Assembly: GCF_036971445.1 (NCBI RefSeq)
Contig: NC_091476.1
Span: 93,124,001 to 93,188,000 of the forward strand
Source of the DNA: Narcine bancroftii
Taxonomy: Eukaryota
DNA: 64,000 nucleotides
Reading direction: 5' to 3'
In this document: positions 100 through 63,691 of the stretch, one piece after another
Layout: every line of letters starts with the position of its first letter
Numbering within the stretch: the stretch's first letter is position 1
The notes under the pieces: model-generated
The model's input: the letters and a program-made list of their open reading frames with translations, nothing else
Told to the model about the DNA's origin: nothing
The model's database searches: none
Program-made: the position numbers and the translations under genes

Positions 100-2950
100 C
101 AGTGGGGATGGGAGGGAGATTTAAAGTCAATCAGCTATTGAGGCCAATGCTCGCGTTACATCAGCTGCAAGAGGACACAGCTGAGAACTGCAAAGAGCTA
201 GCCCATTGGTGAAGGGTGATGAGCATGGAGATGGTGATGGTGATGTTCATCTGAAAACTTACATGCCAAATCTAGGGAGCATACAAATCCAACCTTGCAC
301 ATGCATTGAATGGAGCTTAGACCTGATTATTTTTCAAAGTGCACTCTCTTGTGGCCAATCCTACGCCAATGTTTACGTAACTAACTAGAGGTTTCAGTTT
401 CCTTTGCAGCACAGGCATACATTTCCTATCATGTCAAGACTGAATTCAAACTTCTGACTTCTTGGGATGAATGAGTGTTTTGTTTGATCTTGGTTAATCC
501 ATGAGTTTTAGCATCTCCTTTCAGTGTTTCATTTCTGCCCTTGGTAGTTTGCTGGACCTTGACCACTTCCCTGTTGTAGTCCATGTCTTGCTCCCAGAAC
601 TTGAACTGAATGTCAGTTAGATGGAATGCCTGCATCTTGTACAACTAGTTTTGCCAATGCTTCCCAATCTGCACAATGATTGGACAGAATGGCCATTTCT
701 GCCTTTATAGGTCCAAGTCTGGCGTCAGTTTGATTTTGCATGAAACTTGAAGAACACCATGATTGACACCTCCTAAATGCACAAGATGTGTTCATGAAAA
801 TCACTAAATTGCACACATAAAATGGCACATTCTCCAATCAGATGTACACTTGGAAGAACCTCTTGCAGTGAGGTGGCTAGAAAGCTGGTCAAAATAAAAA
901 CTGGTGGGATGAATGGCCAAAATGATAAATGCTTTCATTGGTGTCCTAGGCCTATTGCAGTAATCTTGCTCCTCACCAACCAAATAGGAATAAATCGAAT
1001 CCACACCCATTTCACTCATGACTATTATCACAACTGAAATATTTATACATACAGTATATCTCACAACACTGAATATACATTAAACACTCACAAAGCTATT
1101 CACCCATTGCATAGGATGACATCATATTCACTGGCACTCTCTCCCTGGAGATTTGTTTGTTTTTACAGTAACAGACTGGAGAAGGGTTACTTGGAGCAAA
1201 TGATTCATAGTAATCTTGGGCTAAGCCACTTCAGAGCTTGTGGACCTAATCTATTGTTATGAGCCCAGAGGACCCCAAAATCCAGCAGCAATAGATATTT
1301 ACCAAGACAAGTGATTGCTTCAACAAAAGTTGCTTTTAATTATCTTTAAACATGAAAACAGGATCACACTTTAACTTATCACTATTAACTAACTTAACCT
1401 AACAAGCCCCTTCTAATTCTAAGCACACATGTATGTAATGTGTGTGTTTGTGTAAGTTCAGAAAAGTTCTTTGATTTACAGACCAATCTCACTTCTCATT
1501 CCTCCATGTTTACTAGTTTCAGGCAATTCTTGTATTGTGCACACAATTTAACATTTATGAAGTTCACCAGTCTTTGGTGCTTGAAAGGTAAATGGTTACA
1601 GCTCAGGAAGGTTCTTGTCAGTTTTCAGAGAGAGATTTGTTGTTCCCTGGACACCCACAACTGATTCCTTTTAATCAGCCACTTCAGTGTTGTTTTGCCG
1701 AAGAAACATGGCCCATCAGGATTTTCCTGACGATAACCTCTTCCTTTCAGGTCACCACAGAGTCCCTTTTTTTTTTCTCTTATTTCAAGTGAAACAGTAT
1801 GCAGCCTCTCCTCTTGAATGAATCACAAGGGCTTTGACCAGCACTCACAACCCCTCTTCAAAATGGGGTTTTTCCATAATTTTGCCAGCTTGTCCTATTC
1901 CAGTCCCAGCTGTTGCTGCTGACTGTAAAACTGTAGAACTGATCTCTCTCTCAGAGAAAAGCCTGTTTGACTCCCTCTCTGCTTGCAAAAACCACATGAC
2001 TCTCTTAGAATGGCAAACAGCTCTCCCAGACAGCCTGTGGCTCCGAATCTACTCCTCCGAGTTCTTTCATCTGTTGCTTTTCAAAACAACAATCTGCTAG
2101 TGAAGTCCCTTGGGCACTCTTCAAAGTTTTGTAAAGGCTCTTGGAGCCGACCTGTCTGGCTTGAGCAGAGCTCCACTATTTTAAATGAGATCTGTTTTGA
2201 AGTGTTTGCATATGACCTACACTAAAAAAACTTATCCCAATTTATCTCCTTAAAACATACCTATAATCTGCCACACTAACTTCTTACTTTTAGCTTCTCT
2301 ACAAATTAGTACCTATTCTATCTTGATAATGTAAAGATGGATTAAATTGTCCCTGCCCTCCTTTTCCCTCCCACTTATCATTGAACAATGCCATCCTGTC
2401 TTTTTCATTTCCATATAGCAATACTTGCAACTTCCAATTCAGGTCTTGCTTCTTCATGGGCTTGAAGGAGCAAATTGGAGAAAGGATCTGCCCTAGATAA
2501 TTCACCAAATACACTTTTGCCAGGCCATGAATTAGTTCTCTGTGGTGCAAACACAGAGCTGCAGAATTGAGATGCACACTAAGACTGAGGAATCTATGGT
2601 GCCTCAAATCCCTAGTGTGTGAAAATACCTGGAATAATGATGCCCAAGATTTTGTACTGAACTGAACATCATCCTTTCTAACATTGTGAATATGCCCAGC
2701 TGCACATTAACAATTGTGGAACCAACCATAATGCTGAGAATGATAGCTAAGGACACACCTTCCATGGCAGCACAGGAGGAAACAACCCAACCAATAGAAG
2801 TTATGATTCCTGTCAGCATGTCAATGTATCTATGGTTGTCAGAATCTTGATGATGTCATATCACTCAGTGGCCTATTCTCCTGCTGCTTTCTGGGTTAGT
2901 GGAGGCTCCAATTCAGAGGAATGTCAGTGGTTCCATTTAATGTATCTGAA
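100..2950 (-). mobile_element. Very old, degraded CR1/L2-like LINE remnants, split by the solo LTR at 1255-2275; similar remnants continue at ~7000-7900
   Basis: Minus strand at 2640-2830 resembles a decayed RT 'PQGSVL..FADD' region. Many stops and frameshifts. Boundaries approximate. Confidence 0.3.
1255..2275 (-). mobile_element. Solo LTR (~1 kb)
   Basis: Ends tgttatga...ctgccaca (TG...CA). Flanks ctat/ctaa are a near-match 4-bp TSD. Non-coding. Orientation tentative. Confidence 0.6.
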
Positions 2951-2972
2951 AACAAGTGTCTTTGAACCCGAC

Positions 2973-3693
2973 ATGAACGACCCTTCGATCAACTTTATAG
3001 CCATCAAGCTTCCTGACTTCTGGGTTCAGGAGCTGGAGACCTGGTTCAGCCACGCAGAGTCTCAGTTTCACCTCAGCCAGATTTCATTGGATTCAACCAA
3101 GTTTTACCATGTGTTCGCAGCCCTGGACCAGGCCACCGCCAAACGAGTGCTGCACCTCGTTCAGCACCCACCCGCGGAAGATAAGTACGGGACCATTAAG
3201 CGGGTGCTCACCGGCTCCCTTGACCTCTCGGCGCCAGCGTGCCACCCGGATGCTGCTCCTCGATGCCTTGGGAGACAGAACTCTAATCGAGTTGATGGAG
3301 GAGATGCTCGCGCTCATAGGCAATCACACCAACTGCCCACTCTTTGAGCGCATTTTCCTCGACCATCTGCCTGATGACATCAAGCTGTTACTGTCTCAGG
3401 AGAGCTTCATCGACCCTAGGAAGGTCGCTTAAAAGGCTCAGGAGCTATAGCTCGAACGATTCCCGGAGGGCTCAGCAGTCCAGTAGGTTACGAGTCATGG
3501 GTATGACCATACCAAGCCTTCCTCTAGCGCTGCGGTGGAACACCCGGCCCCTTCAGGGGCCTCAAAGAGCATAATCAGAAGCAAGCCATCCATTTCAGCC
3601 CTCTGCTTCTTCCACCAGCGCTGGGGAGCCAAGGCTCAGAGGTGTCGGCAGCCCTGCTCATTCCAGGGAAATGAGCAGGCTGGCCGTTGTTAA
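2973..3693 (+). pseudogene. gag: Gypsy gag (disrupted)
   Basis: Begins MNDPSINFIAIKLPDFWVQELETWFSHAESQF. C-terminal CFFHQRWGAKAQRCRQPC (CHCC knuckle, 3604-3657). One frameshift near 3230 and internal stops. Confidence 0.85.
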
Positions 3694-6680
3694 TGGCTGC
3701 GGCGGCTGGCCAAGAACACAGCCTTCTCTTCCTGCGGGATTCAGTCTGCAGCCGATGCTTCCTCGTCGACACCGGGGCCCAGATCAGCGTCATCCCGGCC
3801 ACAGCCATCAAGTCCTGGAACTGGCCTCGAGGACCTCCCCTCCATGCAGTCAATTTGACGGAGATCCAAACCTATGGAGACAAGACCGTTCACTTCCAGA
3901 TCGGCCAGCGGAAGTTCTCGTGGAGGTTCACCGTTTTGTCCCTCTCAACCGCCATCCTGGGTGTCGACTTCCTCCTTGCCCACGGACTCCTGGTCAAGAT
4001 TCAAGGTAGGCAACTGGTAGTTGCCTGTACCTTCCAATCCGTTCACCTCAATGCCTCTTGCACAGAGCAGCTGCATATGGCCATGGTCAGCACGCCCAAG
4101 GACGAGTTTCATCATATTATGGATGGTTCCCATCCCTCCTCAAGCTGCAGTTCTCTACCACCTCACCATGCTTTGGGGTGTTTTATTACGTCCCCACCCA
4201 AGGCCCGCCGGTCAATGCCAAGGCACGCTGGCTCCTGCTGGATAGGCTCCAGATAGTGAAGGAAGAGTTCTTGCATCTGCAGGAGCTGGGGATCATTTGA
4301 TGCTCCGACATTCCTTGGGCTTCACCACTCCACCTGGTCCCGAAAGCCTCCGGCGGCTGTCGCCTCTGCGGAGATTATCGACAGCTTAATAACGCGACAG
4401 TACCTGACTGTTACCTGATCCCTCACATCCAGGACTTTACGGCCAACCTGCAAGGTGCGAGGGCATTCTCCAAGGTCAACCTGGTGTGCAGGTATCACCA
4501 AATTCCGATGCACCCCGAGGACATACCCAAAACGTCCATCATCACCCCCTTCGGCTTGTTCGAGTTCCTAAGCATGCCGTTCGGGCTCAAGAATGCCGCC
4601 CAGACCTTCCAGCGCCTCATGAACACAGGGGCAGGGATTTGAATTTCGTATTCATTTACCTGGGCGACATCCTTGTCACCAGCAGAGACTGGGCACAACA
4701 CAAGTTTCACCTGTGCACCCTCTTCTCCCGACTGGCCGACTTCGGCCAAACGATCAATCCGGCCAAATGCCAGTTCGGGAAAGAGTCCATGCAGTTCCTG
4801 GGCCATACCATCACGGCCGAAGGAGCTATACCTGCCGCTACGAAGGTCACTGGAGTCAGGGAGTTCCCACGCCCGGACAACCTCAAGGGGCAACAGGAGT
4901 TCGCGGGTACGGTCAGTTTCTATACCCGCTTCATTCCAGGCGCTGCGCGCATCATGCAGCCGTTCTTTGCCCTCATTGCGGCCAAAGACAAGACACTTGC
5001 CTGGACTCCAGAGGCCAGCAGGACATTCAAAGCCACGAAAGATGCCCTCGCAAAGGCTACCCTGCTCGACCACCCACGCACTGATCTACATATGGTGCTC
5101 TCCGTCGATGCCGCTGCCACAGCTGTCAACGCTGTCCTGGAGCATTGGGTGAACGGACAGTGAAAACCACTGGCATTCTTTAGCAGACTTCTTCGCCCGC
5201 CAGAGCGCAAGTATAGCGCTTTTGACCATGGGTTGCTGGGCATGTACCTGGCGGTGCACCATTTCTGCTATTTCTTGGAGGGGAGGCCTTTCACCATTTT
5301 TACCAACCACAAACCCCTAACTCAGGCGCTCGCTATAGCAAGAGATTCCTGGTCGTCCTGTCAACAGTGTCACCTTTCCTTCGTGTCGGAGTTCACCACC
5401 GACATTCAGCATAAGACGGGGAAAGACAACGTGGTCACCGACGCACTCTCATGACTGGCCAATTGTGTGCTGACACTCAGCCTCGTCTTCGACCGGCTCG
5501 CCTGGGACCAGAAGTCCGATGAGGAGACGCGGGCCTTCAGGACTGCCGTCACGGCCCTGCAGTTCTAGGACCTCCCGACTCCTCACGGGGAGGGCACCGT
5601 CCTGTGCAATGTCTCCATGGTCACCCCGCATCCAGTGGTTCCCCAGCAGTGGTGCAGGCAAGATCTTCCACCATATCCATGATCTTTCCCACCCTTCCAT
5701 CAGGTTCACGGTCCGTATGGTGGCAGAACGTTTCGTCTGGCATGGGCTTCGGAAGCAGATTGTGGACTGGGCCAAAACCTGCACCCATTGCCAGCTTTCC
5801 AAGGTACACAGGCACACCAGAGCACCTATACAAAATTTTGAACACGTCCGGGAACAGTTCAGCCACATACATGTGGACATCATCGGACACTTACCTGTTT
5901 CCCGAGGTAACCGTTACCTTTTTGCACCACTCGCTGGCCCGAGGCAATCATGATGCCAGATGCCTCCATGGATTCCTGCTCCCAAGTGCTTTTGAACGGT
6001 TGGGTTGCCCGAACCGGCGTCCCGAACCACCTCACCAGTGATCGGGGCACCCAGTTCAATTCTGCATTCTGGGCATAGCTCGCCAACAGGCTGGGGATCG
6101 AGCTACATCACACCACGGCCTATCATTCACAGGCTAATGGGCTAGTCGAGCGTTTGCATCGCCACCTTAAGTCGGCACTGATGGCCTGCCTCACCGACCC
6201 CGACTGGATGGACGAGCTGCTTTGGGTGCTCCTGGGCATCCGCTCGACACCCAAAGAAGACCTACAGGCGTTATCAGCCGAGCTGGTTTACGGTGCACCG
6301 CTAGCTCGTCATCATACCTCACAACCCCCAGCAGTTATCGCACGGTCTACTTCTTACCTGCCTTTGGGCCCAGTTGGACTCCTTCACACCCCCACCGCCG
6401 CCGCCCAGACACGGCCCACGTCCCCCAGCGAGCTGTATTCTGCAGAGTATGTTTTTATCAGGCAGGGCTCATCCACAGCACCTCTACAAAGACCATACGA
6501 AGGGCCGTACAAAGTCGTCCAGCTTTTGGGATCCACTTTCACACTGGACATCGGTGGTAAGAGGGAACTGTTTATGGTGGACAGGTTAAAGTCAGCCCAC
6601 CTCGACCTCACTGAGCCATTAGTTGTGGCCCAATCCAAGAAGCGAGGCCACCCAACAGAAAAAGACATTGGCGCCAGTTC
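3687..6680 (+). pseudogene. pol: Gypsy pol (protease, RT, RNase H, integrase), frameshifted
   Basis: PR FLVDTGAQISVIP. RT PWASPLHLVPK..GDYRQLN..MPFGLKNAAQTFQR..IYLGDILV (YLDD mutated). RH VDAAATAV, KYSAFD. IN HHCC (HDLSHP..CTHCQ), HVDIIG, SDRGTQF, and GPY motif LQRPYEGPYKV. Confidence 0.92.
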
Positions 6681-6998: not shown

Positions 6999-9246
6999 GG
7001 ATGTAAAATCACACAGAAAGCTTATTTCTCACTGATTATGTGGTTTTGGATTTTAATGGCATTATAGAAAGATTGGCATATTGCATTATTTTCTTCAGGT
7101 TTTCATGAACTATGCAGAAGATCATTGATGGACAGTTGCTTATTAGGGAACAGTGGCAGTCAGTAGATTTGGACTTCTCTTTCTGCTTTATAATGAGATT
7201 TGTTCAGAAATGTCAGGAGATTGGCATTTATTACTCATTCCATATTCCTGATCCACTTCAGTACTTGCAGCGAGGGAACTGACACTGGTGTTTGGAAGCA
7301 TCTCCAGCATTTTGTAGTCGTTAAAGAACCCAAGTGATAGTCTCTGTTGATATAAGATTGGGGGTTCTCCCTGCAGTAGGAGGAAACTTTCATAGCTTGC
7401 GCCATCCAGGGGGGGATATAGCATATACTGCACAGATTGCACAAATGTGGGACTTGAGTGAAATGTTTGGTTGACAGACAGTAGACCAGTGGGAATCTTT
7501 GTGCTGAATGATTCGGAATGTCTTTGGAGATGTACCCAACATAGCAAATGGAGAATATATGCCAGTGTCTTTAGAAGTAACTACAATTCTGATTTGAGCC
7601 TTTGAGTTGGTGGAATGTATTTACAAGGTAAATATCATTCACTGCTCTGTCTAATGCCACAGTAATTAAGAAGCAGTTTCTGGTGATTTTCTAGTAAATG
7701 GTGATCCGCAAGATATTGCTGTTGAGGCAATGGGAAGGGTCCATACTGTTGTGCATTAACAGGAAATAACAAGACTTTTAACTGATGGAGTTGGTCATCG
7801 CATTTTGGTACATTGGTAACTTACCCATTGGCCCTCTAAATTGAAAAGATGTCAATGACTTGCTTCATTCAGCAATGAGTTGCATCTGATCTAATGGAGT
7901 AAACCCATCAAGTCAATCTCAAGCATATATCTCATGCCTTAACACCAAATGTTGATTTTCCACTTTTTACTCTTTATGTATTTCCTGTCCTTCCTATTTC
8001 TGGAAATTAGGCCAGGATTTTGCCCTCATGAGTGTGACGCAAAGCACTGGTTAATTACAATACGGCTCTGGTCAATTCAGTATGTTCAAGAAAATTGTTT
8101 ATGACACCTTTAGCAGCAAGGAAAAAGTACTCTTATGTTACTCAAGTAATATGGTTTTCGCATACCCTTCTGCTTTCCCTGGCAAAAGCAAATCTCAGAG
8201 TCAATAGGCTTTGACTCTGCTTGGCCATGACTAATGTTTGAAGGAAAAATCTGTCCAACCAATCCAGGAAACAGTTTTCAAGGGAAAAGAAACTGCTCTC
8301 ACATCCTTTATGCTGGCAAAAGCGAATATAAGCGTAGCTCCTGTGTTTATAATCTTTAGCACCACTCAAAATTCCATTTGAAAGTTCACTTGATCAATGC
8401 ATAAAACTTGTTTATCCATTGCAACTCCCAGTTCCATGACAAATATTTTCTGTCACATGACAGATCGCTGTAGCAATTTGCTTGAATGAAGCTGTTTATC
8501 ACATTCTTGTCACATTCATCATTGCCACACCGGTTGGTACTTAATGTTAGCTTTACATATCAAAGTTTTAATAAAATAAGTAGACATATATTATCACTTT
8601 TTAAACCAATCACAAGTTTCTTGCTGTCTTTGTTTTGCCACAAATTGTTAAACCTATGATGCTACAGCAGTTTGCCTTTGAAAGGAACTGCAGGATACCC
8701 CTAGCTGGTTCAGGCAGCTGAATCACATCTTGAGGAGTCTCTAAGGATCATCTCTCTGACTAGTATCGTGACAAAATCAGGGTAGCTCCAGACATTGTCT
8801 CATGATGAACACACCATGTGAGTTTCTGAATATTCTGAGCTTCTAATTATTTATAATTGGATACTGAATTTTAACATTTAACATCCTTTGGGCATTTTAT
8901 TTTGGATTATTACAATTTGCAATACATTCTTTTCTCTATGACACTGATTTTTTAGACATTCAAATTTACTAACCCTTGAACTATGGTATCTTATTCAGTA
9001 TCTCATTCATTGATCTTTTTTTTCTCTTCAAACTTTGATATTTTACTGTGAACACTCAAGTCCAGGCCACTGATGGATTATTACAAAGAGGAATAATCCT
9101 CACACTATCCCCTGAAGGTCATTACTGCTCACTTTCCTTCAGAATAAAAAACATCAGTTTACCACCATTGTATTCCTCTGGCCCTTTATTTCGGGTTGAT
9201 TTGCATGAGGTTTACTTTTGCTAGCAAGTCTATTGTTTGATATGTT

Positions 9247-9679
9247 TGTGATAGTACAGATCTATCACCAATGTATATAGTGTATATAGTTACAGTATCT
9301 AGACTGTGCTTACAGCGATTGGCTGAGAGCTAAGCCACACCTACTGTCTGGGCCTTAAAGGGTTGTGTCCCTCGCCAGGTCGGATCATTCCGGACTGGTC
9401 GGCCACCTGTGAAGAGCTCCTGTCTTTTGCTAATAAAATTGTAGAGCTCGTCGAAAGAACCAAAGACTTGTTGATCCAGACCAAGGCTTTTATTAGCAAA
9501 AGACAGGAGCTCTTCACGGGTGGCCGACCAGTCCGGAATGATCCGACCTGGCTAGGGACACAACCCTTTAAGGCCCAGACAGTAGGCGTGGCTTAGCTCT
9601 CAGCCAATCGCTGTAAGCACAGTCTAGATACTGTAACTATATACACTATATACATTGGTGATAGATCTGTACTATCACA
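9247..9679. mobile_element. Fold-back (palindromic) LTR element, copy 1
   Basis: Inverted 192-bp arms (9247-9438, 9488-9679) with 3 mismatches by eye and a 49-bp spacer. Full LTR on the minus strand at 9440-9679. TG...CA ends. Perfect TSD ATGTT. Confidence 0.93.
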
Positions 9680-9689
9680 ATGTTAGCAA

Positions 9690-10197
9690 ATGCCTGTTTA
9701 CAAGACTAGTTTTGGGTTTGTGAGAATGATCCTAGGGATGAGAAGGTTAATGTCTGAGGACCCTTTGATGGTTCTGGGTCTGTACTGGAGCTTAAGAATG
9801 AGGGTGTGAATCTCATTGAAACTCATTGAATATTATTGAATGGACTGGATAGAGTGGACTTGGGAGACGTTTCCTGTAGTAGGAAGGTTTTGAACTGGAG
9901 GGCACAAACCAAGAATAAAAGGATTTCTCTTTAGAACAGTGTTGATAAGAAATTTCCTCAGCCAAAGAATGGTGAATCTGTGGACTTTATTTCCACAGAA
10001 GACTGTGGAAGTCTAGTCATTGGGTATATATAAAGCAGAGGTTGATAGATTCTTGATTAGTGAGAGTGACACAGGTTGAGGGAGAAGGCTAGAGAATGGA
10101 GTTGAGAGGAAAAATATATCAGCCATATTCAAATGGCAGAGCAGACTTGATGGGCTGAATGACCTAATTCTGCTCCTACTTCATACGGTTTTATGGA
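9690..10197 (+). mobile_element. CR1 LINE 3' fragment
   Basis: Decayed GLYxLE..R.DLIE...RMVNLW RT C-terminus followed by a CR1 3' UTR. Confidence 0.8.
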
Positions 10198-15729: not shown

Positions 15730-16283
15730 ATTGTACATTGTGCTTTGGGTCACCTTATCTAAGGAAGGATGTTCTTGCAATGGAGGGAGTGCAGAGGCGA
15801 TTCACCAGGCTGATACCTGGAATGGCAGGAATGACTTATGAGGAAAGATTGCGCAAATTGGGATTGTACTCGCTTGAGTTTAGAAGATTGAGAGGGGATC
15901 TCATAGAGACCTATAAAATTCTGGCAGGACTGGACAGAGTGGATGCAGATGGGATGTTTCCAATGATGGGAAAATCCAGAACCCGGGGCCATGGTTTGAG
16001 GATAATAGGCAAGCCATTTAGGACCGAGATGAGGAGAAATTTCTTGACCCAGAGGGTGGTGAATCTGTGGAATTCATTGCCACAGAGGGCAGTAGAGGCA
16101 GGTTCATTAAATCTATTTAAGAGGGAATTAGATCTATTTCTTCAGTATAAGGGTATTAAAGGTTACGGAGAGAAGGCGGGGACGGGGTACTGAACTTTAA
16201 GATCAGCCATGATCTCATTGAATGGCGGAGCAGGCTCGAAGGGTCGAATGACCTATTCCTGCTCCTATCTTCTATGTTTCTAT
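15730..16283 (+). mobile_element. Young CR1 LINE 3' end
   Basis: Open ORF2 C-terminus EGVQRRFTRLIPGM..YEERLRKLGLYSLEFRRLRGDLIETYKI..QRVVNLWNSLP, then 3' UTR and ttctatg tail. Confidence 0.95.
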
Positions 16284-16734
16284 GGATGGGTATAAATTGC
16301 ATCCTCTCTTGTTCTGATTAATTATGCTATATTTTAAATTTATGTTCAATAGAACTTTATTTGGTTAAAACAATTTTCTTTTTTGAAATCTGATTTTGTC
16401 AAGCAGGAATATTTGTTATGGAAGCACATTCCATTTCGTGGTTCAGTATCCTAGACCCATATATGCAATTTGGTTTAAACTTATACGACTCTTTCAACAC
16501 TTTTGCATACTCAATTGCTACTTTTTTATTTTCCATTTTTGCCAGATTATGATCTGTCTGAGTAAGATTAATTGGGAACTATTTTTCATGCATCACAATG
16601 AAGAACGAGACAGACTGCAAAATAATTTGAAAGGTCCTCCACAAATGAGCAAAACACGACCTTTGATGGAATGAATCTGGCCTGATTATGAATGCAGAGG
16701 CACATTCTGATATAAAAACAGATAGCATAGGAAA

Positions 16735-21528: not shown

Positions 21529-21909
21529 AAGAGACATATAAAATTCTGGCAGGACTGGACAGAATGGATGCAGATGGGATGTTTCCAATGATGGGAAAAT
21601 CCAGAACCCGGGACCATGGTTTGAGGATAATAGGCAAACCATTTAGGACCGAGATGAGGAGGAATTTCTTGACCCAGAGGGTGGTGAATCTGTGGAATTC
21701 ATTGCCACAGAGGGCAGTGGAGGCAGGTTCATTAAATCTATTTAAGAGGAAATTAGATCTATTTCTTCAGTATAAGGGTATTAAAGGTTACGGAGAGAAG
21801 GCGGGGACGGGGTACTGAACTTTAAGATCAGCCATGATCTCGTTGAATGGCGGAGCAGGCTCGAAGGGTTGAATGACCTACTCCTGCTCCTATCTTCTGT
21901 GTTTCTATG
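21529..21909 (+). mobile_element. Young CR1 3' end, same subfamily as 15730-16283
   Basis: Near-identical ETYKILAGLDR..GIKGYGEKAGTGY* and 3' UTR. Confidence 0.95.
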
Positions 21910-23839: not shown

Positions 23840-24823
23840 AAATACACAAAAATGGTGGACTTTTTTTTGGGCCTGAGCCCTTCATCTAGAGCATAGGCAG
23901 CCAGGCACCTGAATGAAGAGGCTGAGGGAAGATGGAAGAAAGAGCAGGGGAGGAGCCCAGGTCAATAACCATAATTGGACAGGAGAGAAAAGATAAAAAT
24001 TGATTGAGGGAGGGGGTGGCTCTGTTAATGCAGAGCTAGATGAAAGGAGACATAGGGATAGGGGAAGAGGAGAGACAGGGTGGAGGGATGGAGGAGGGGG
24101 GAGTGATTAGAAACTGGAGAAGTCAATGTTGAGGTTGGAGAGTGCCCAGAGAGAATATGATGTTCTTCATCCAATTTGCAGTTGGTCTCAGTCTAACAGT
24201 GCATGAGACCATGGATAGGCATGAAAGACAGGCATGGGAATGGGGTGGAGAATTAAAATGGGTTGCCCCAAGGAGATCCTTGCTATTGTGTGAAGATTCT
24301 CAATGAAGCCATCTCCTAGTCTCTCCGATGTAGAGGAGGGCACAACAGAAGTGCCACATCCAGTAGATGACTCCTGCATATTCATGTGAAATGCATATTG
24401 GAGCAACAACACCTCATGTTCCTTATGAGCACTCTCCAACCAGATGGCAATAACATTGACCTCCAGTTTCTGCCCCCTCCCCCCATTATTCCCTTTCTCC
24501 TATCCCTATGTCTTCTTTCCTCCAGTTCTGCACTCATAGAGACACCTACTTCTCCAATCAATACTCATCTTTTCTCTCCTCTTAACCATGTCCAATTTTG
24601 ATCTTTTGGCTCTCGGCCTGTGATTTTTTTTCCCATGCCCACTCTTCTCTCCCTCCAAAACTATTTCTATACAGGTGCCTGTCTGATTTTTGCTCATACC
24701 TTGATGAAGCGCTCAGGCCTGAAACATTGGTTAACGATCTTACCTCCTCTGGACACTGTGATCATCCAGCATTTTTATGTGTTTACTACAGTCACAGCAT
24801 CTGCTAACTTCCTTGTTTCACTC
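23840..24823. mobile_element. Penelope-like element: minus-strand 3' part joined head-to-head to a plus-strand 3' part
   Basis: Minus strand GIY-YIG GVIYW....ALLYIGETRR (24310-24375). Plus strand LEQQHLMFLMSTLQPDGNNID followed by a tail with a hammerhead-like motif (24701-24725). Confidence 0.85.
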
Positions 24824-33087: not shown

Positions 33088-33787
33088 AAGCCATTTCAGA
33101 TAACCCAAAAGTTGGGATATAAAGGCGAAAAAACTCCGCCAATATGCATAATGACTTACCTTTCTGAATGAGCAGAGGTGGTCTCCGAGCCGCATATTCC
33201 AACCCCTATCCAAGAGGGATAATCTCCACAATGCAGCCCTCTGCTGATCAATCTGAATTGGCAGCTGCACTAGGCGGCTGTTTGGGAGTGGGCCAATGAT
33301 GCCGTCAGCCCGTGACCCATCTCCCCACTCACCCCTTTCCCTCCAAGTCAGGAGCAGCGGGGAGTCCTCAGGGCAGTCTGGGCAGCAGGAGCATTCTGGG
33401 TAGAGCGTGGCAGCGGGGACCGGCGGGGCAGCAGGGACCATCAGGAGGCAGCTGGTGTGGGCTGGGATTTCGGCCTTCGGGGCCATTCTCTGTGGCTCAC
33501 AATGCAGCAGAGCAATGATTGTCTTCCCTACCCATAATCCCCCATGCAGCTGGAACTGTTCTGGGAACCATAGAGCGGTTTCAACTGTGTGGGGGATTAT
33601 GGGTAGGGAAGATGGCCATGGCTCTGCCGTGTATTGGTGACGGGTGGCGCTATGGCACCAGTCGGCCCAACTACACTGGGATCTGGAGGGAACTATGAGG
33701 CGCTTCTCCTTTGAATGGGCTGCAGACCAGATTTTCAATCCACCCCGTAAGCCGGTCTCCAGGCAGAAGCCCGAACTGAAATGGCCC
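33088..33787. mobile_element. Non-autonomous PIF/Harbinger-like DNA transposon (700 bp)
   Basis: TIR aagccatttcag / ctgaaatggccc and 3-bp TSD AAT. Removing it restores CR1 ggcaatgtgaag. Confidence 0.85.
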
Positions 33788-41245: not shown

Positions 41246-41532
41246 AACAATGAGAGGAATTCATAGAGAGAAATGGTCAGTCAGTATTTTGGATTGGGAT
41301 CCTTTTCAAGGATTTATTGTTTCACTCTGTCACCATATGCAGATTAAAATTAGCATGTCATGTGTGGAGTTGCGTGTAAGTTCAGTGATAAACCACGAGA
41401 CAGATGATGGGGAAGAGAAACCCATTGCTCTTCTCTCACTCACGCAAACGAGATTAATTGTGAATAAATCCACAGACTGGTGATATTCATCAAGGAAATA
41501 AGAAAGACTGTGGATGCTAGAGAATGGGAGTA

Positions 41533-41725
41533 ACACACAAAATGCTGGAGGAACTCAATAGGTCAGACAGCATCCATGGAAGGCAATAAATAGTCAATAC
41601 TTTGGGCTGTAACCCTTCATCAGGAGCCATTTCTGACATTGATTATCTATTGCCTTCCATGTTTGCTGCCTGACCTGCTGAGCTTCTAAAGCATTTGGTA
41701 TGTTGCTACAAATACTCCATCAGTT
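41533..41725. mobile_element. Penelope-derived palindromic mini-element
   Basis: aaatgctggaggaactca..ggtcag..catggaaggcaata is inverted to tattgccttccatg..ctgacctgctgag..gcattt. Minus-strand CTGATGA core at ~41616-41622. Confidence 0.75.
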
Positions 41726-43923: not shown

Positions 43924-44276
43924 CATTGGTTTTCAACCTTTTTCTTTCCACTCGCATCCCACTTTAAGCAATCCCCATGCCATCAGTGCTCTGTGATTAG
44001 TGAGGGATTGCTTAAGGTGGGGTGCGAGTGGGAAGGGAAGGTTGAGAACCACTGCTCTAGACCCTATTGTTACTGAAATATTTTGCTTGAGAAAAATAGT
44101 CATTGGCTCATTTTCTTTGGAGTTGTGAAACAGTGCACATAACGAGTCAATGAGGTGCGATTAAAACAATAGTTTTCAATCTTTTTCTTTCTACCCACAT
44201 CCCTTACAGAGCACATATGCCATAGGGAATACTTAAAGTGGTATGTGAGTGGAAAGAAAAAGGTTGAGAACCACTG
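43924..44276. mobile_element. hAT/Charlie-like MITE doublet (43924-44054 and 44167-44276)
   Basis: TIRs of the CAGTGGTTCTCAACC type (..ggttgagaaccactg). First unit is followed by ctctagac, a typical Charlie target site. Confidence 0.8.
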
Positions 44277-50068: not shown

Positions 50069-50475
50069 TGTGATGGTACAGGTTCTATCACCAATGTGTA
50101 TATGTACAGATCGTAGTGTAGGATGACTGTGATTGGTTGAGAGCGTAGCCACGCCTACTGGCAGGTCTTAAAGGATTGCTTCTAGCCAGACTAGGTCATT
50201 CTGGACTGGTCGACCTACTTGTGATATGCTCCAGTCTTTTAGTTAATAAAAGCCTTGGTCTGGATTAACAAGTCTTTGGTTCTTTCGACATGCTCACAAT
50301 TTTATTAACTAAAAGACTGGAGCATATCACATGACGAGTCCAGAATAACCTGGTCTGGCTAGTAGCAACCCTTTAAGTCCTGCCAGTTGGCGTGGATATG
50401 CTCTCAGCCAATCGCAGTCATCCTACACTACAATCTGTACATATACACATTGATGATAGAATCTGTACTATCACA
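50069..50475. mobile_element. Fold-back (palindromic) LTR element, copy 2
   Basis: Full LTR at 50069-50298, one A, then inverted U3-R at 50300-50475. TG...CA ends. TSD ctatt/ctact. Confidence 0.9.
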
Positions 50476-60117: not shown

Positions 60118-62712
60118 CTTTCACTTTTAATGTACCTGTAAAACTCTTTTAATTTTTTTTTTACCTTGCCTGCCAAAGCAGCCTCATATTTCCTTTTAGC
60201 CTTTCTAATTTCTTTCTTAAGATTTTTTTTGCACTCTATATTCCATATTTATTCCGTGCTGTCTATAACCATTGTATACATCCCTCTTCCTCCAAACCAA
60301 ATTCCAAATATCCCTTGAAAACCAAGGCACCCTATATTTTCTAACCTTTCCTTTAATCCTCACAGGGACAGACTGACTCTGTACTCTCAGAATTTCCCCT
60401 GTAAATATCCTCCATTTATCTGTTGCATCCTTCCCAGAAAATAAATGATCCCAATCCACACCTTCTAAACCCTTTTGCATCTCCTCAAAATTAGTCTTGT
60501 TCCAATCAAGAATCTCAACTGTAGGCCCAGCCCTATCCTTCTTCATAATTAACATATAGTATTATAATCACTAGACCCAAAGTGTTACCCAACATAAATC
60601 TCTGTCACCTGACCCATCATGTTCCCTAATACGAGATCCAATACAGACCCCTCTCTCTATGTATTGATTTAGAAAACTTTCCTGAACACATTTGACAAAC
60701 TCCAATCCATCCAGCTCTTTTATGGTTTGGGCATCCCAGAAAGTTCTAGAATCACCAACTTGTGTTTACTACACATATATGCTATCTCCTTACAAATGTG
60801 CTCCTCTAATTCCCTCTGTCCATTAGGGAGTCTATAATACACCCTCATTAGTGTTTTCATTCCTTTCCCATTCCTAACCAAATAGCCTCACTGAATGAGC
60901 CCTCCAATCTATCCTGCCTTAACACCACTGTAATGTTTTCTCTAACAAACAATGCGACTCCTCTACCTTTTATCCCCCTTGTCCTATCATGCCTAAAGCA
61001 ACCGAATTCTGGAGCATTCAACTGCCAATCATGCCCCTCCTGCAATCAAGTTTCACTGATGGCTATAATATCATATTTCCATGTGTCAATCTATGCTCTA
61101 AGCTCATCCATCTTACTCACCCTGCTCCTCGCGTTGAAATATATACATTTAAGAGCATGTCCCCTACAATTGCTCCTTTGATTACCACCTACTAATCCCT
61201 TTTCTTCATTAATTTTAACAATCTGATTCCTCTCTCCCTTCAAATAGAGTTGTCCTTCTACTCTAATCTCCAAACTCTCATTCTGATTTCCATCCCCCTG
61301 CCAAACTAGTTTAAACCCTCCCCAGCAGATCTAGCAAACCTGCCTGCCAGGATATTGATCCCCCTCCAATTCAGGTGCAGTCCATCCCTTTTGTACAAGT
61401 CAGACCTTCCCCAGAAGAGATTCCAATGATCTGCAAATCTGAACCCCTGCCCCTGGACCAACTCTTTAGCCACACATTCATCTGCCACATCTTCCTATTT
61501 TCTCTGGTGCATGACACAGGCAGCAATCCTGAGATTACCACCTTCCCTAACTCCCTATAGTCTTCCTTCAGGACCTCTCCCCACTTCTATCTATATCATT
61601 GGTCCCCACATAGACCACAACATCTGGCTGCTCACCCTCTCCCTCCAGAATACTGTGCACTCAATCAGACATCCCTGACCCTGGCACCCGGGAGGCAACA
61701 TACCATCCAGGAAACCTCCAATCCATTTGTTTAACCAACAAATCCCCAATCATTATCTCTCTCCTCTTCTCCCCAACTTCCTTTCTGAGCTGCGGGGGCC
61801 AGCCTCTGCACCGGAGACATGACCACCTCAACTTGTAGGTCCCCATCAACAGTATCCAAAATGGTATACCTGTTGTTGATGGGAACAGCCACAGGGGTTC
61901 ACTGCACTGTCTGCATCTTCTCCTTCCCTCTCCTGACAGTCACCCAGCTACTTGTCTCCTGAATTATAGGGGTGACTGTCTCCCTGACACTCCTGTCTGC
62001 CACTACCTCTACCTCTCTCAAGATTTGCATTTCATCTAACTCCTGCTCCAGTTCTCCAACTCAAGTTGTAAGGAGCTGCAGCTGGATGCACCTTCTGTAA
62101 ATGTAGTCATCAGGGACAAATACACTGTCCCAGATTACCCACTGTCCTAGCTGATTATGTTACCTAACTTTAATTAAAGGATTAAACTGCCTTACCTCTC
62201 TTGTAGCAAACAAGCTAGCTTTTTCTCAGCCTTTACCAGCCAAAGCCTCAAAACTCCACTCTTACATTAAGCCACTCCAAGTTGGTCACTCCTTTAGCTA
62301 CCCCTCCTTTTATTGGTCCCTGCCACCCAATTAACACAAAACTCACTCCCAAAAATTAACTCTTAATTGTCTTAACTCTTAGGTCTCGGTGCCCTTTTTA
62401 AACCCTCCAAATCACTGGCACTCACCACTTCTGACTTGACTGTGAATGAAATGAGGGGGACAGACAGAGAAAATGTAGATAGACTTTTTCCACTGAGGGT
62501 AGGTGAGATACAAATCAGAGGATATGGGTTAAGAGTGAAAGGAAACTTCTTCACACAGAGAGCAAGCTATCAGCTGAGATGATTAATGTGGGCTTAAATT
62601 TAATATTTCTTTTTCTTTTTAAAATATTTTTATTGATTTTAATAAATAACTTATACAAACAAAAAGGGTACAATTCAATTACATAGTATGGATAGTTTGT
62701 ATTGGGAAAAAT

Positions 62713-63345
62713 TGTGGCTGTCATGTGACAGCACTGCCCTTACCTAGTTGGAGGACACATCAGCTGCCAATCAAGGTTTGGTTCTGCCCCATCCACTGGT
62801 GCACACCTTGTTTTTGGCTCCATGTAAATTACTTGGATTGGACTCTCCAACCTGCCTTTACTTGGCCTTGGGCCATTAGCTGTTGTAATTGGATTAACTC
62901 TCCTGGCACTGAGCCATTGGGTCTGGAACCTCCAACACTATAAAGGTGCCATGTGCTCTTTGTTCTTTCTCTTTGCTAGCTTGGGACCACCCTAATTCAC
63001 TCTAGGGTGCTGGAGAAACTGTTGGTAAGATGTGCACTGTTAAAAGGGTTGGGAACATTTAATTAGTGTCACTTGCCTGCACTGAGTCAAGGGGTGGTGG
63101 GGCATTGTAGAGATTTTTTCCTTGATCATTGTATGCATGTGTATATTTTGTTCCATTGCTTTTTTTCCCCCATGTTCATTATTAATTATCTGCTATTTCT
63201 TTTCCATGGCTGCAGTAAAGTGTGTGTGTGTTGCATCATTTACCATTTCCCATACTTGCCTTCTGTAAATAAAATGCTTCCCCATCAAAACTGTTCAGAG
63301 CCCTTGCCATTGAGACCTTCCAAACCTGTTTCCTCACTCATAACA
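62713..63345 (+). mobile_element. Solo LTR, 5' boundary uncertain, inside an L1-like tail nested in a CR1 3' fragment
   Basis: CCAAT boxes, TATAAA ~62939, AATAAA ~63268, ends cataaca. Confidence 0.6.
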
Positions 63346-63548
63346 TAATTACATAAAATAGATATTCTGTATATCACTAACATACACAAATTGTAAATCA
63401 TGTCCATAATTCATATTCTAAATAGTTATATTTTTTAGAAAAAAACTCTTATAATATTTAAAAATTTGGACCGGTCAGTGGGACTAGGAAAAAAAATGGT
63501 TCTGCACAGACTAGAAAGGCTGAAGTGGCCTATTTCTGTGCTGTGATG

Positions 63549-63691
63549 TCCTCTGATTTGTATCTCACCTACCCTCAGTGGAAAAAGTTTATGTTTACTC
63601 TGTCCCCCTCATTTTATTCACAGTCAAGTCAGAGGTGGTGAGTGCCATTGATTTGGAGGGTTTAAAAAGGGCACCGAGGGCTAAGAGTTAA
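63549..63691 (-). repeat. Inverted duplicate of 62372-62522
   Basis: Reverse-complement match over ~145 bp, including the same chimeric junction. Confidence 0.85.

Follow-up and report, generated by a model that had tools for sequence, protein, structure and literature searches.

Recurrent fold-back LTR palindromes in a ray genome are probable insertion by-products of a Gypsy retrotransposon with a self-complementary primer-binding site

The window, by which we mean the whole 64-kb stretch of Narcine bancroftii DNA analysed here, contains a complete fold-back insertion of 433 bp (E1, 9247..9679, minus strand; TGTGATAG...CTATCACA), assigned to subfamily A of family 1 and organised as U3-R-U5-A-rc(R1)-rc(U3), where rc denotes the reverse complement. 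The initial annotation had described a palindrome with 192-bp arms, three mismatches and a 49-bp spacer, and our measurements agree: the arms pair over 192 nt, stop pairing at 193 and differ at positions 93, 127 and 162. A repeat finder gave arms of 203 nt, 11 nt of which are weakly palindromic flank, and the DNA fold of E1 has a z value of -43 against 100 shuffles. The perfect 5-bp target site duplication (TSD) previously reported, ATGTT, is present at 9242..9246 and 9680..9684 (plus strand). The order of parts was also as annotated, with a complete 240-bp TG...CA LTR on the minus strand (9440..9679; LTR position n is window position 9680-n), a single A (9439) and then the reverse complement of the same unit from position 192 to 1. 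This second arm (9247..9438, plus strand) corresponds to LTR 1-192 and provides a second U3 end, and the unpaired 49-nt spacer (9439..9487, minus strand) consists of LTR 193-240 plus the A, which is the base separating the LTR from the primer-binding site (PBS) in the parent element. Positions 1-255 of the parent match window 9679-9425; the last 14 nt (9425..9438, minus strand) are identical to the parent PBS but continue as reverse-complemented U3, not as 5' UTR. The segment R1 (LTR 179-192, ending in AATAAAA; 9488..9501, minus strand) is complementary to that PBS. Motif calls within the LTR gave a CCAAT box (ATTGG on the LTR strand, LTR 72-76; 9604..9608, plus strand) and TTAAA (LTR 109-113; 9567..9571, minus strand), about 30 nt before TCATTCC (9535..9541, minus strand). 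We take TTAAA to be a TATA-like box and TCATTCC to be an initiator match, with the predicted +1 at the A of LTR 141 (window 9539).

The initial annotation had made the palindrome depend on read support, and this was obtained for both outer junctions, which are bridged by short-read contigs in two samples of one organism. The contigs of sample X1 cover 8300-9271 and 9656-10046 with zero differences, those of sample X5 cover 8300-9324 and 9656-10060, and U3 faces inwards at each junction. However, the inner junction was spanned by none of the 32 contig pieces listed (there are 19193 further pieces). As to an empty site in a relative, a further run (X11) reaches the left flank up to 9241 and is without most of E1, and a joint across E1 was not among the pieces listed.

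A second fold-back, which goes beyond the initial annotation and derives from another, related family (family 2), lies 41 kb from E1. This older insertion (E2, 50069..50475, plus strand) comprises a 230-bp LTR, an A and an inverted arm reaching to LTR 183. Its LTR is identical to that of E1 in 193 of 247 aligned columns, and its flanks, CTATT and CTACT, form a TSD matching at four of five positions. No tRNA gene was found in the 64-kb window. Other features of the window are a decayed, unrelated Gypsy-type element (2751-5163; DUF7041, protease, RT and RNase H on the plus strand), a pair of 93-nt terminal inverted repeats (95%) with a TTAA start around a CR1-like fragment (62372-63691), possibly a piggyBac-type non-autonomous element, and further short inverted-repeat elements that are MITE-like or paired SINE/LINE ends (43924-44276, 23981-24580, 41529-41707 and 33507-33627). 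A 380-bp direct repeat (97%; 15905-16284 and 21530-21909, 5625 bp apart) matches a LINE 3' end.

The LTR of E1 is about 97% identical to both LTRs of a full-length gag-pol element (L039). The parent is a Gypsy element of ~4.9 kb (4.8-4.9 kb) with the order LTR-A-PBS-gag-pol-PPT-LTR and 5-bp TSDs. Direct TG...CA LTRs surround gag-pol in L029 (TSD CAGGT), L036 (GAGGC), L039 (CCCCC/CCCCA) and L038 (TSD unclean), and direct LTRs with a TSD do so in L190, L193 and L194 of family 2. The pol order is PR-RT-RH-IN (Pfam on the L039 ORFs), and the polypurine tract (PPT) AAGAAGGGGTGAA precedes the 3' LTRs in both families. An LTR 26-mer had 4961 exact matches in the 3.33-Gb genome, and 30 loci taken in chromosome order yielded 27 full LTRs (14 solo LTRs with a perfect TSD, four 3' LTRs, three 5' LTRs and six others). 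The genome search proposed in the initial annotation, with classification of loci and tabulation of junctions and TSDs, returned direct LTRs, solo LTRs and recurrent fold-backs. It had been noted that the 240-bp unit would be simply that of a long-TIR DNA transposon if it never occurred as a direct or solo LTR; this reading was ruled out, because the unit flanks gag-pol as direct LTRs (L029, L036, L038 and L039) and forms TSD-bearing solo LTRs (14 of 27).

No chromodomain was found at the integrase C-terminus, Pfam giving rve alone in two integrase ORFs, and the chromodomain family was absent from all 120 protein relatives among the matches listed. The nearest named proteins among these matches were from N. 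bancroftii (98%) and then Hypanus sabinus (77%), and the named relatives listed were from rays, a cnidarian, a shrimp and a nematode. Members of the CFG1/Gulliver/Hydra2-1 group of the Mag lineage have short LTRs, a length of ~4.8 kb, a single gag-pol and a YLDN motif, and are widespread in marine animals. The parent is a candidate for this group; no named Mag-lineage reference was among the protein matches listed. In L039 (321-3116), the zinc knuckle of gag is separated from the protease by a long tandem repeat rich in Ala and Thr. Two derived arrangements of the LTR were also observed: a TRIM-like unit in L031 (1627-2204), with two direct LTRs around 98 bp that include a partial PBS and PPT (TSD AGGTG), and an array of about ten 172-bp tandem units (LTR 65-240) in L032 (1419-3378), which arose from one LTR at a TACA microhomology and is a nascent satellite.

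Behind its 5' LTR, the parent has a single A, the reverse complement of LTR 179-192 (the 14-nt PBS) and then the 5' UTR; a TGG-type tRNA PBS is absent at this position in both family 1 and family 2. The PBS of family 2 differs, being 15 nt long and the complement of its own LTR 169-183; PBS and LTR target have changed together, which we count as support for self-priming. The fold-back junction lies where it does because it is the LTR-A-PBS of the parent running on as rc(U3), and its position, which the initial annotation did not account for, is explained by the self-complementary PBS. Compared with shuffled sequences, the leader RNA shows no excess of folding stability (z = -0.07), and its predicted structure includes the R1:PBS helix. 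We infer that the parent is a self-priming, non-chromodomain Gypsy retrotransposon.

Relatives of this element were retrieved from metagenomes with an alignment query (80 loci); single-protein scans of metagenome and viral contigs gave zero matches. Sixteen 5' LTRs were bounded by hand among these loci, and L203, L213, L217, L233, L258, L268, L270 and L273, which carry direct repeats and not sense TG...CA LTR pairs, were left out of the PBS test. A self-complement of 11-19 nt was found behind the CA in 14 of the 16 bounded relatives, 13 of them after one spacer base, with shuffles giving a mean of ~7 and maxima of 9-12. By family, about 10 of 11 related metagenome families were positive and one was negative; L247 and L254 (one family, with a truncated 3' LTR) had no self-complementary PBS in this test. 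A TGG-type PBS next to the LTR was absent in all 16. An AATAAA/ATTAAA-like motif coincides with the PBS target, or overlaps it, in both families and six of the 14 positive relatives. Fold-backs were seen at none of the 80 metagenome loci, a count that is uninformative given that the loci are short.

The exact family-1 fold-back junction occurs 141 times in the genome, versus 804 normal LTR-PBS-UTR junctions (patterns of 26 and 24 nt, respectively; the normal count can include a few fold-backs), and that of family 2 accounts for at least 183 of 1082 LTR-PBS junctions (patterns of 27 and 18 nt, so that this is a lower bound). We classified 90 loci holding 94 of the 100 family-1 matches listed; two further listed matches (L003 and L007) are both complete, four were outside the classification and 41 of the 141 were beyond those listed. 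Complete palindromes were found at 18 of the 90 loci, with a TSD of 5/5 in 16, 4/5 in one and none in L052, the scan for TSDs having tolerated small shifts of the ends. A full arm with a broken LTR side was present at 35 loci (5/5 TSD around the whole unit in 16 of 29 closed), a single LTR with a 26-bp inverted insert at 13 (nine with a 5/5 TSD), to which class two of the 35 also belong, a short arm at 23 (5/5 TSD in four of 17 closed) and a 3' LTR carrying the arm at one. The clean palindrome on which the initial annotation was based represents only about a fifth of the products sharing the junction. In family 2, for which the sample consisted of 30 of the 183 junction loci and of top matches picked by likeness, three of the 30 junction loci were complete and a fourth nearly so; the TSDs were weaker, 16 chosen copies giving 5/5 in six and 4/5 in five at the true ends. 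Other units with U3 at both ends and a TSD of 4/5 or 5/5 are L063, L070, L145, L149 and L187.

In the LTRs with an insert (15 loci of family 1, including L049, L060, L131, L142 and L154, together with L290, L295, L307 and L310 of family 2), the poly(A) signal is immediately followed by the same 26 bp, copied in inverted orientation from the U5 end and attached through an AAAG microhomology. Most have a TSD, they occur in several U3 subfamilies and they do not form a clade (AU p = 0.0003); the same template switch therefore recurs. Chimeric units with the fold-back junction have multiplied as dispersed copies or tandem arrays, with periods of 332, 278 and ~6670 bp (L178, L179, L180 and L181; L200 and L300-L304; L106-L111), and some aberrant products may therefore be re-mobilised or amplified. 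In L117 of family 2, a complete fold-back directly adjoins coding sequence for RNase H-integrase; the far end is outside the locus, and the whole is a candidate U3-bounded unit with integrase.

The phylogeny of 22 complete fold-back LTRs and 77 normal LTRs (81 of 96 branches open) shows the fold-backs scattered among normal LTRs, on both sides of an LTR subfamily split with a support of 99. These 22 correspond to the 24 found minus two abutting the PPT; L052 and L158 were removed by filters. The fold-back state needs 21 changes for 22 rows, versus 20.1 with shuffled labels, and a single fold-back clade was rejected (AU p = 0.0008). The fold-backs therefore arose separately, many times. The claim that a U3-U3 palindrome was integrated, as distinct from a solo LTR, a TRIM or a MITE, is borne out by copies with 5-bp TSDs that recur in two families without forming a clade. 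In 13 of the 22, at most one of the 77 normal LTRs resembles the arm more closely than does the LTR to which the arm is joined, and in five fold-backs arm and LTR share variants present in 0-3 of the 77. Arms from different subfamilies were observed in three of 22 (L004, L005 and L177), versus none of eight normal LTR pairs. The two arms therefore mostly have one source and sometimes come from two molecules, and the mixed arms could also result from later gene conversion, all 13 diagnostic sites falling within LTR 15-55. Arm divergence (median 4/192, range 1-19 substitutions) is no greater than the 5'-3' LTR divergence of full elements (2-10 of ~192, eight pairs), suggesting that the fold-backs formed during the active period of the family.

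As to the fossil INTERMEDIATES, 13 of the 23 short arms end within LTR 135-149, with a mode at 141 (four arms). Under a uniform null, this clustering has p = 1e-8, or p = 1e-7 for 11 of 19 distinct junctions, the window 135-149 having been chosen post hoc. This mode coincides with the A of TCATTCC and lies ~38 nt upstream of where the paired segment, LTR 179-192, begins. The ends of short arms near the predicted start suggest a self-primer of ~52 nt (LTR 141-192), for which LTR 141 would be both the transcription start and the 5' end, and the end of R1 the predicted 3' end. Most arms ending near 141 resume in sense-strand internal sequence, and in L069, L139, L172 and L173 such short arms end in a normal 3' LTR with a TSD; this pattern would be the expected residue of mispriming by plus-strand strong-stop DNA with a copied ~52-nt primer. 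Similar spacing is found in family 2 (initiator at 130, end at 183) and in the metagenome relative L269 (52 nt). Family 2 barely replicates the hotspot: one lineage stops at 132, close to the initiator at 130, and the ends of four other short arms are at 38, 43, 47 and 144. The initiator sits, by eye, in the loop of an imperfect DNA hairpin, and a break or a stall in this loop might look like a 5' end. On the LTR side, 40 of 50 breaks (15 insert-LTRs included) are located within LTR 182-226, inside the unpaired loop or at its margin, and seven are at 192-193; the opening of hairpin-capped ends and their joining to other cDNA would be expected to leave such breaks.

We consider it probable that the fold-backs are dead-end reverse-transcription by-products of a self-priming Gypsy element, inserted by its own integrase. 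The RNA would start at about LTR 141, with nt 179-192 pairing with the PBS. RNase H would cut at 192/193, giving a ~52-nt self-primer that stays attached, as does the shorter primer of Tf1, which is reportedly not removed. Plus-strand strong-stop DNA (U3-R-U5-A) would then copy into the attached primer and so acquire a 3' end able to pair with 14 to 52 nt of its own R; a copy that overshot 14 nt could not prime at the normal acceptor. The 3' end would anneal to R, either within the same strand as a hairpin or on a sister plus strand, and extension through U3 would carry it to the PPT-defined U3 end. The two U3 ends used by integrase would belong either to one duplex built from two such strands or to a pair of hairpins sharing an intasome. 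Resolution of the centre by host repair would give the clean palindrome, and a hairpin loop opened and joined to another cDNA would give the chimeric forms. Both outer ends of the fold-backs are exact U3 ends with a 5-bp TSD, which supports this scheme, whereas the lack of a TSD in L052 and the weaker TSDs of family 2 (6/16 perfect) count against it. In Tf1, PBS DNA is retained in single-stranded form at the 3' end of about 50% of the cDNA (PMC11042837), and abortive self-annealing products are known for HIV-1 minus strong-stop DNA (PMC4668388).

The same integrase product could arise without self-priming, if the minus strand were started by another primer and the PBS/R1 complement served to mask the poly(A) signal at the 5' end; the inverted repeat of 14 nt would then be enough by itself for plus strong-stop DNA to snap back or switch template. 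The AATAAA/ATTAAA-like motif at the PBS target in both families and six of 14 positive relatives, the unremarkable leader fold and the weak replication of the 141 hotspot in family 2 all agree with this explanation. We nevertheless consider it unlikely, given the absence of a TGG-type PBS in either family and in 16/16 bounded relatives and a junction fixed at 192/A/240; moreover, arm stops at ~141 that resume in sense internal sequence fit a 52-nt primer and not a 14-nt repeat. Rearrangement after insertion, in which an element breaks behind the PBS, the end folds onto R1 and the rest is deleted, would draw on the 14-bp inverted repeat with a 49-nt spacer held by every 5' LTR-PBS and on the repair-like joints of many chimeric forms. 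However, nothing in this scheme would make synthesis end at the U3 TG and reconnect exactly at the far TSD, as happened in 16 of 18 complete copies, and arm divergence (median 4/192) does not exceed that of LTR pairs (2-10 of ~192, eight pairs), so that this route appears improbable.

We give very little credence to a MITE, that is, a single fold-back origin amplified by a Ginger-like or integrase-like transposase, and regard it as largely refuted. The TGT...ACA ends and long inverted repeats do resemble Ginger (TIRs of 40-270 bp; PMC2836005) and a few derived chimeric units have spread as lineages or tandem arrays (L178-L181 and L300-L304). However, monophyly is rejected, the fold-backs are present in two LTR subfamilies and two families, their 5-bp TSD is unspecific like that of the parent and not the 4-bp CCGG of Ginger1, and complete copies are rare beside 4961 exact LTR 26-mers. 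Equally remote is a double or nested insertion of two opposed LTRs, or an assembly artefact. Inverted tandem LTR elements with the target motif in the junction are known (PMC5932611), but a target duplicate is missing from the fold-back junction, whose invariant sequence equals the parent PBS, and the second copy lacks LTR 193-240. Chimeric reads can make palindromes and the inner junction is in no listed contig; against this, the arms differ by 1-19 substitutions, unique flanks with a TSD occur at many loci, and both outer junctions are present in short-read contigs of two samples.

The fold-backs are thus a real, recurrent and mechanistically interpretable class of by-products of LTR-retrotransposon insertion, with a predictable form (LTR-A-inverted U3, 5-bp TSD) that annotation tools would label as a MITE. 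They look like DNA transposons yet are by-products, a fossil record of replication in a ray genome: intermediates of reverse transcription that usually escape observation are preserved in the aberrant copies, and the genome by itself points to the likely start site, to the site of primer cleavage and to the integration of two molecules. Self-priming would also be extended to a chromodomain-less lineage, across marine animals. The long LTR hairpins may be small-RNA triggers against the family and are candidate fragile sites, and the U3-bounded units offer a concrete way for Gypsy elements to become Ginger DNA transposons, a 'reverse evolution' that has been proposed. Taken together, these observations could be read more broadly, although we hold this wider view only tentatively and at somewhat below even chances: a metazoan-wide non-chromovirus Gypsy lineage would self-prime with a ~52-nt leader that is never removed, about one-sixth of LTR-PBS junctions would be snap-backs, and integrase would routinely pair the ends of two molecules in vivo, hairpin-capped ends included. 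The U3...U3 units, some with pol fragments, would then be raw material for TIR-bounded Ginger-like transposons, and would probably be mislabelled as non-autonomous DNA transposons in repeat libraries. No description of the fold-back class was found in the literature searched, which held few subscription papers and did not include Repbase, Dfam or GyDB, and a prior mention is possible; nor did the portions of the literature consulted describe self-priming in a Mag-type lineage.

Among known systems, the Tf1/sushi chromoviruses (Tf1, Tf2, Tj1, Maggy, Skippy, Cft-1 and sushi-ichi) likewise have a PBS directly behind the 5' LTR that is complementary to the LTR and not to a tRNA (PMC6317226, bioRxiv 2022.12.06.519325 and PMC11042837). 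However, in our element no chromodomain was found, one unpaired base precedes the PBS and the target ends at the poly(A) signal. Furthermore, the self-primer of Tf1 is the RNA 5' end itself, whereas the primer here seems to be ~52 nt long with only its last 14-15 nt paired. Integrated U3-U3 palindromes were not described for Tf1/sushi in the portions of the literature consulted. Like solo LTRs and TRIMs, the fold-backs are non-coding and LTR-derived, with TG...CA and a 5-bp TSD, but they are inverted, have no U5 end, PPT or internal domain and cannot be recopied by the normal route; unlike solo LTRs, they are made before or at integration and not by LTR-LTR recombination. Long TIRs and TGT...ACA ends are shared with Ginger1/Ginger2 (TDD) and MITEs, for which PMC2836005 gives TSDs of CCGG/CCGT (Ginger1), 4 bp (metazoan Ginger2) and 5 bp (protist TDD-4/5). 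However, the fold-backs themselves have no transposase, their arms are retrotransposon U3 and the matching partner found for their ends is an LTR element. Membership of the MITE/Ginger group fails on the lack of a clade and the unspecific 5-bp TSD, and membership of Tf1/sushi on the lack of a chromodomain. They differ from the inverted tandem produced by double insertion (PMC5932611) in having no target duplicate in the junction and not two complete ends. A parallel in the way such products may form is the snap-back of HIV-1, in which strong-stop DNA pairs with itself or with a sister strand and is elongated into an abortive product; there, this concerns the minus strand, in vitro, and is suppressed by NC (PMC4668388), whereas in our element it would be the plus strand that snaps back, creating an integrable end that is preserved in a germline genome.
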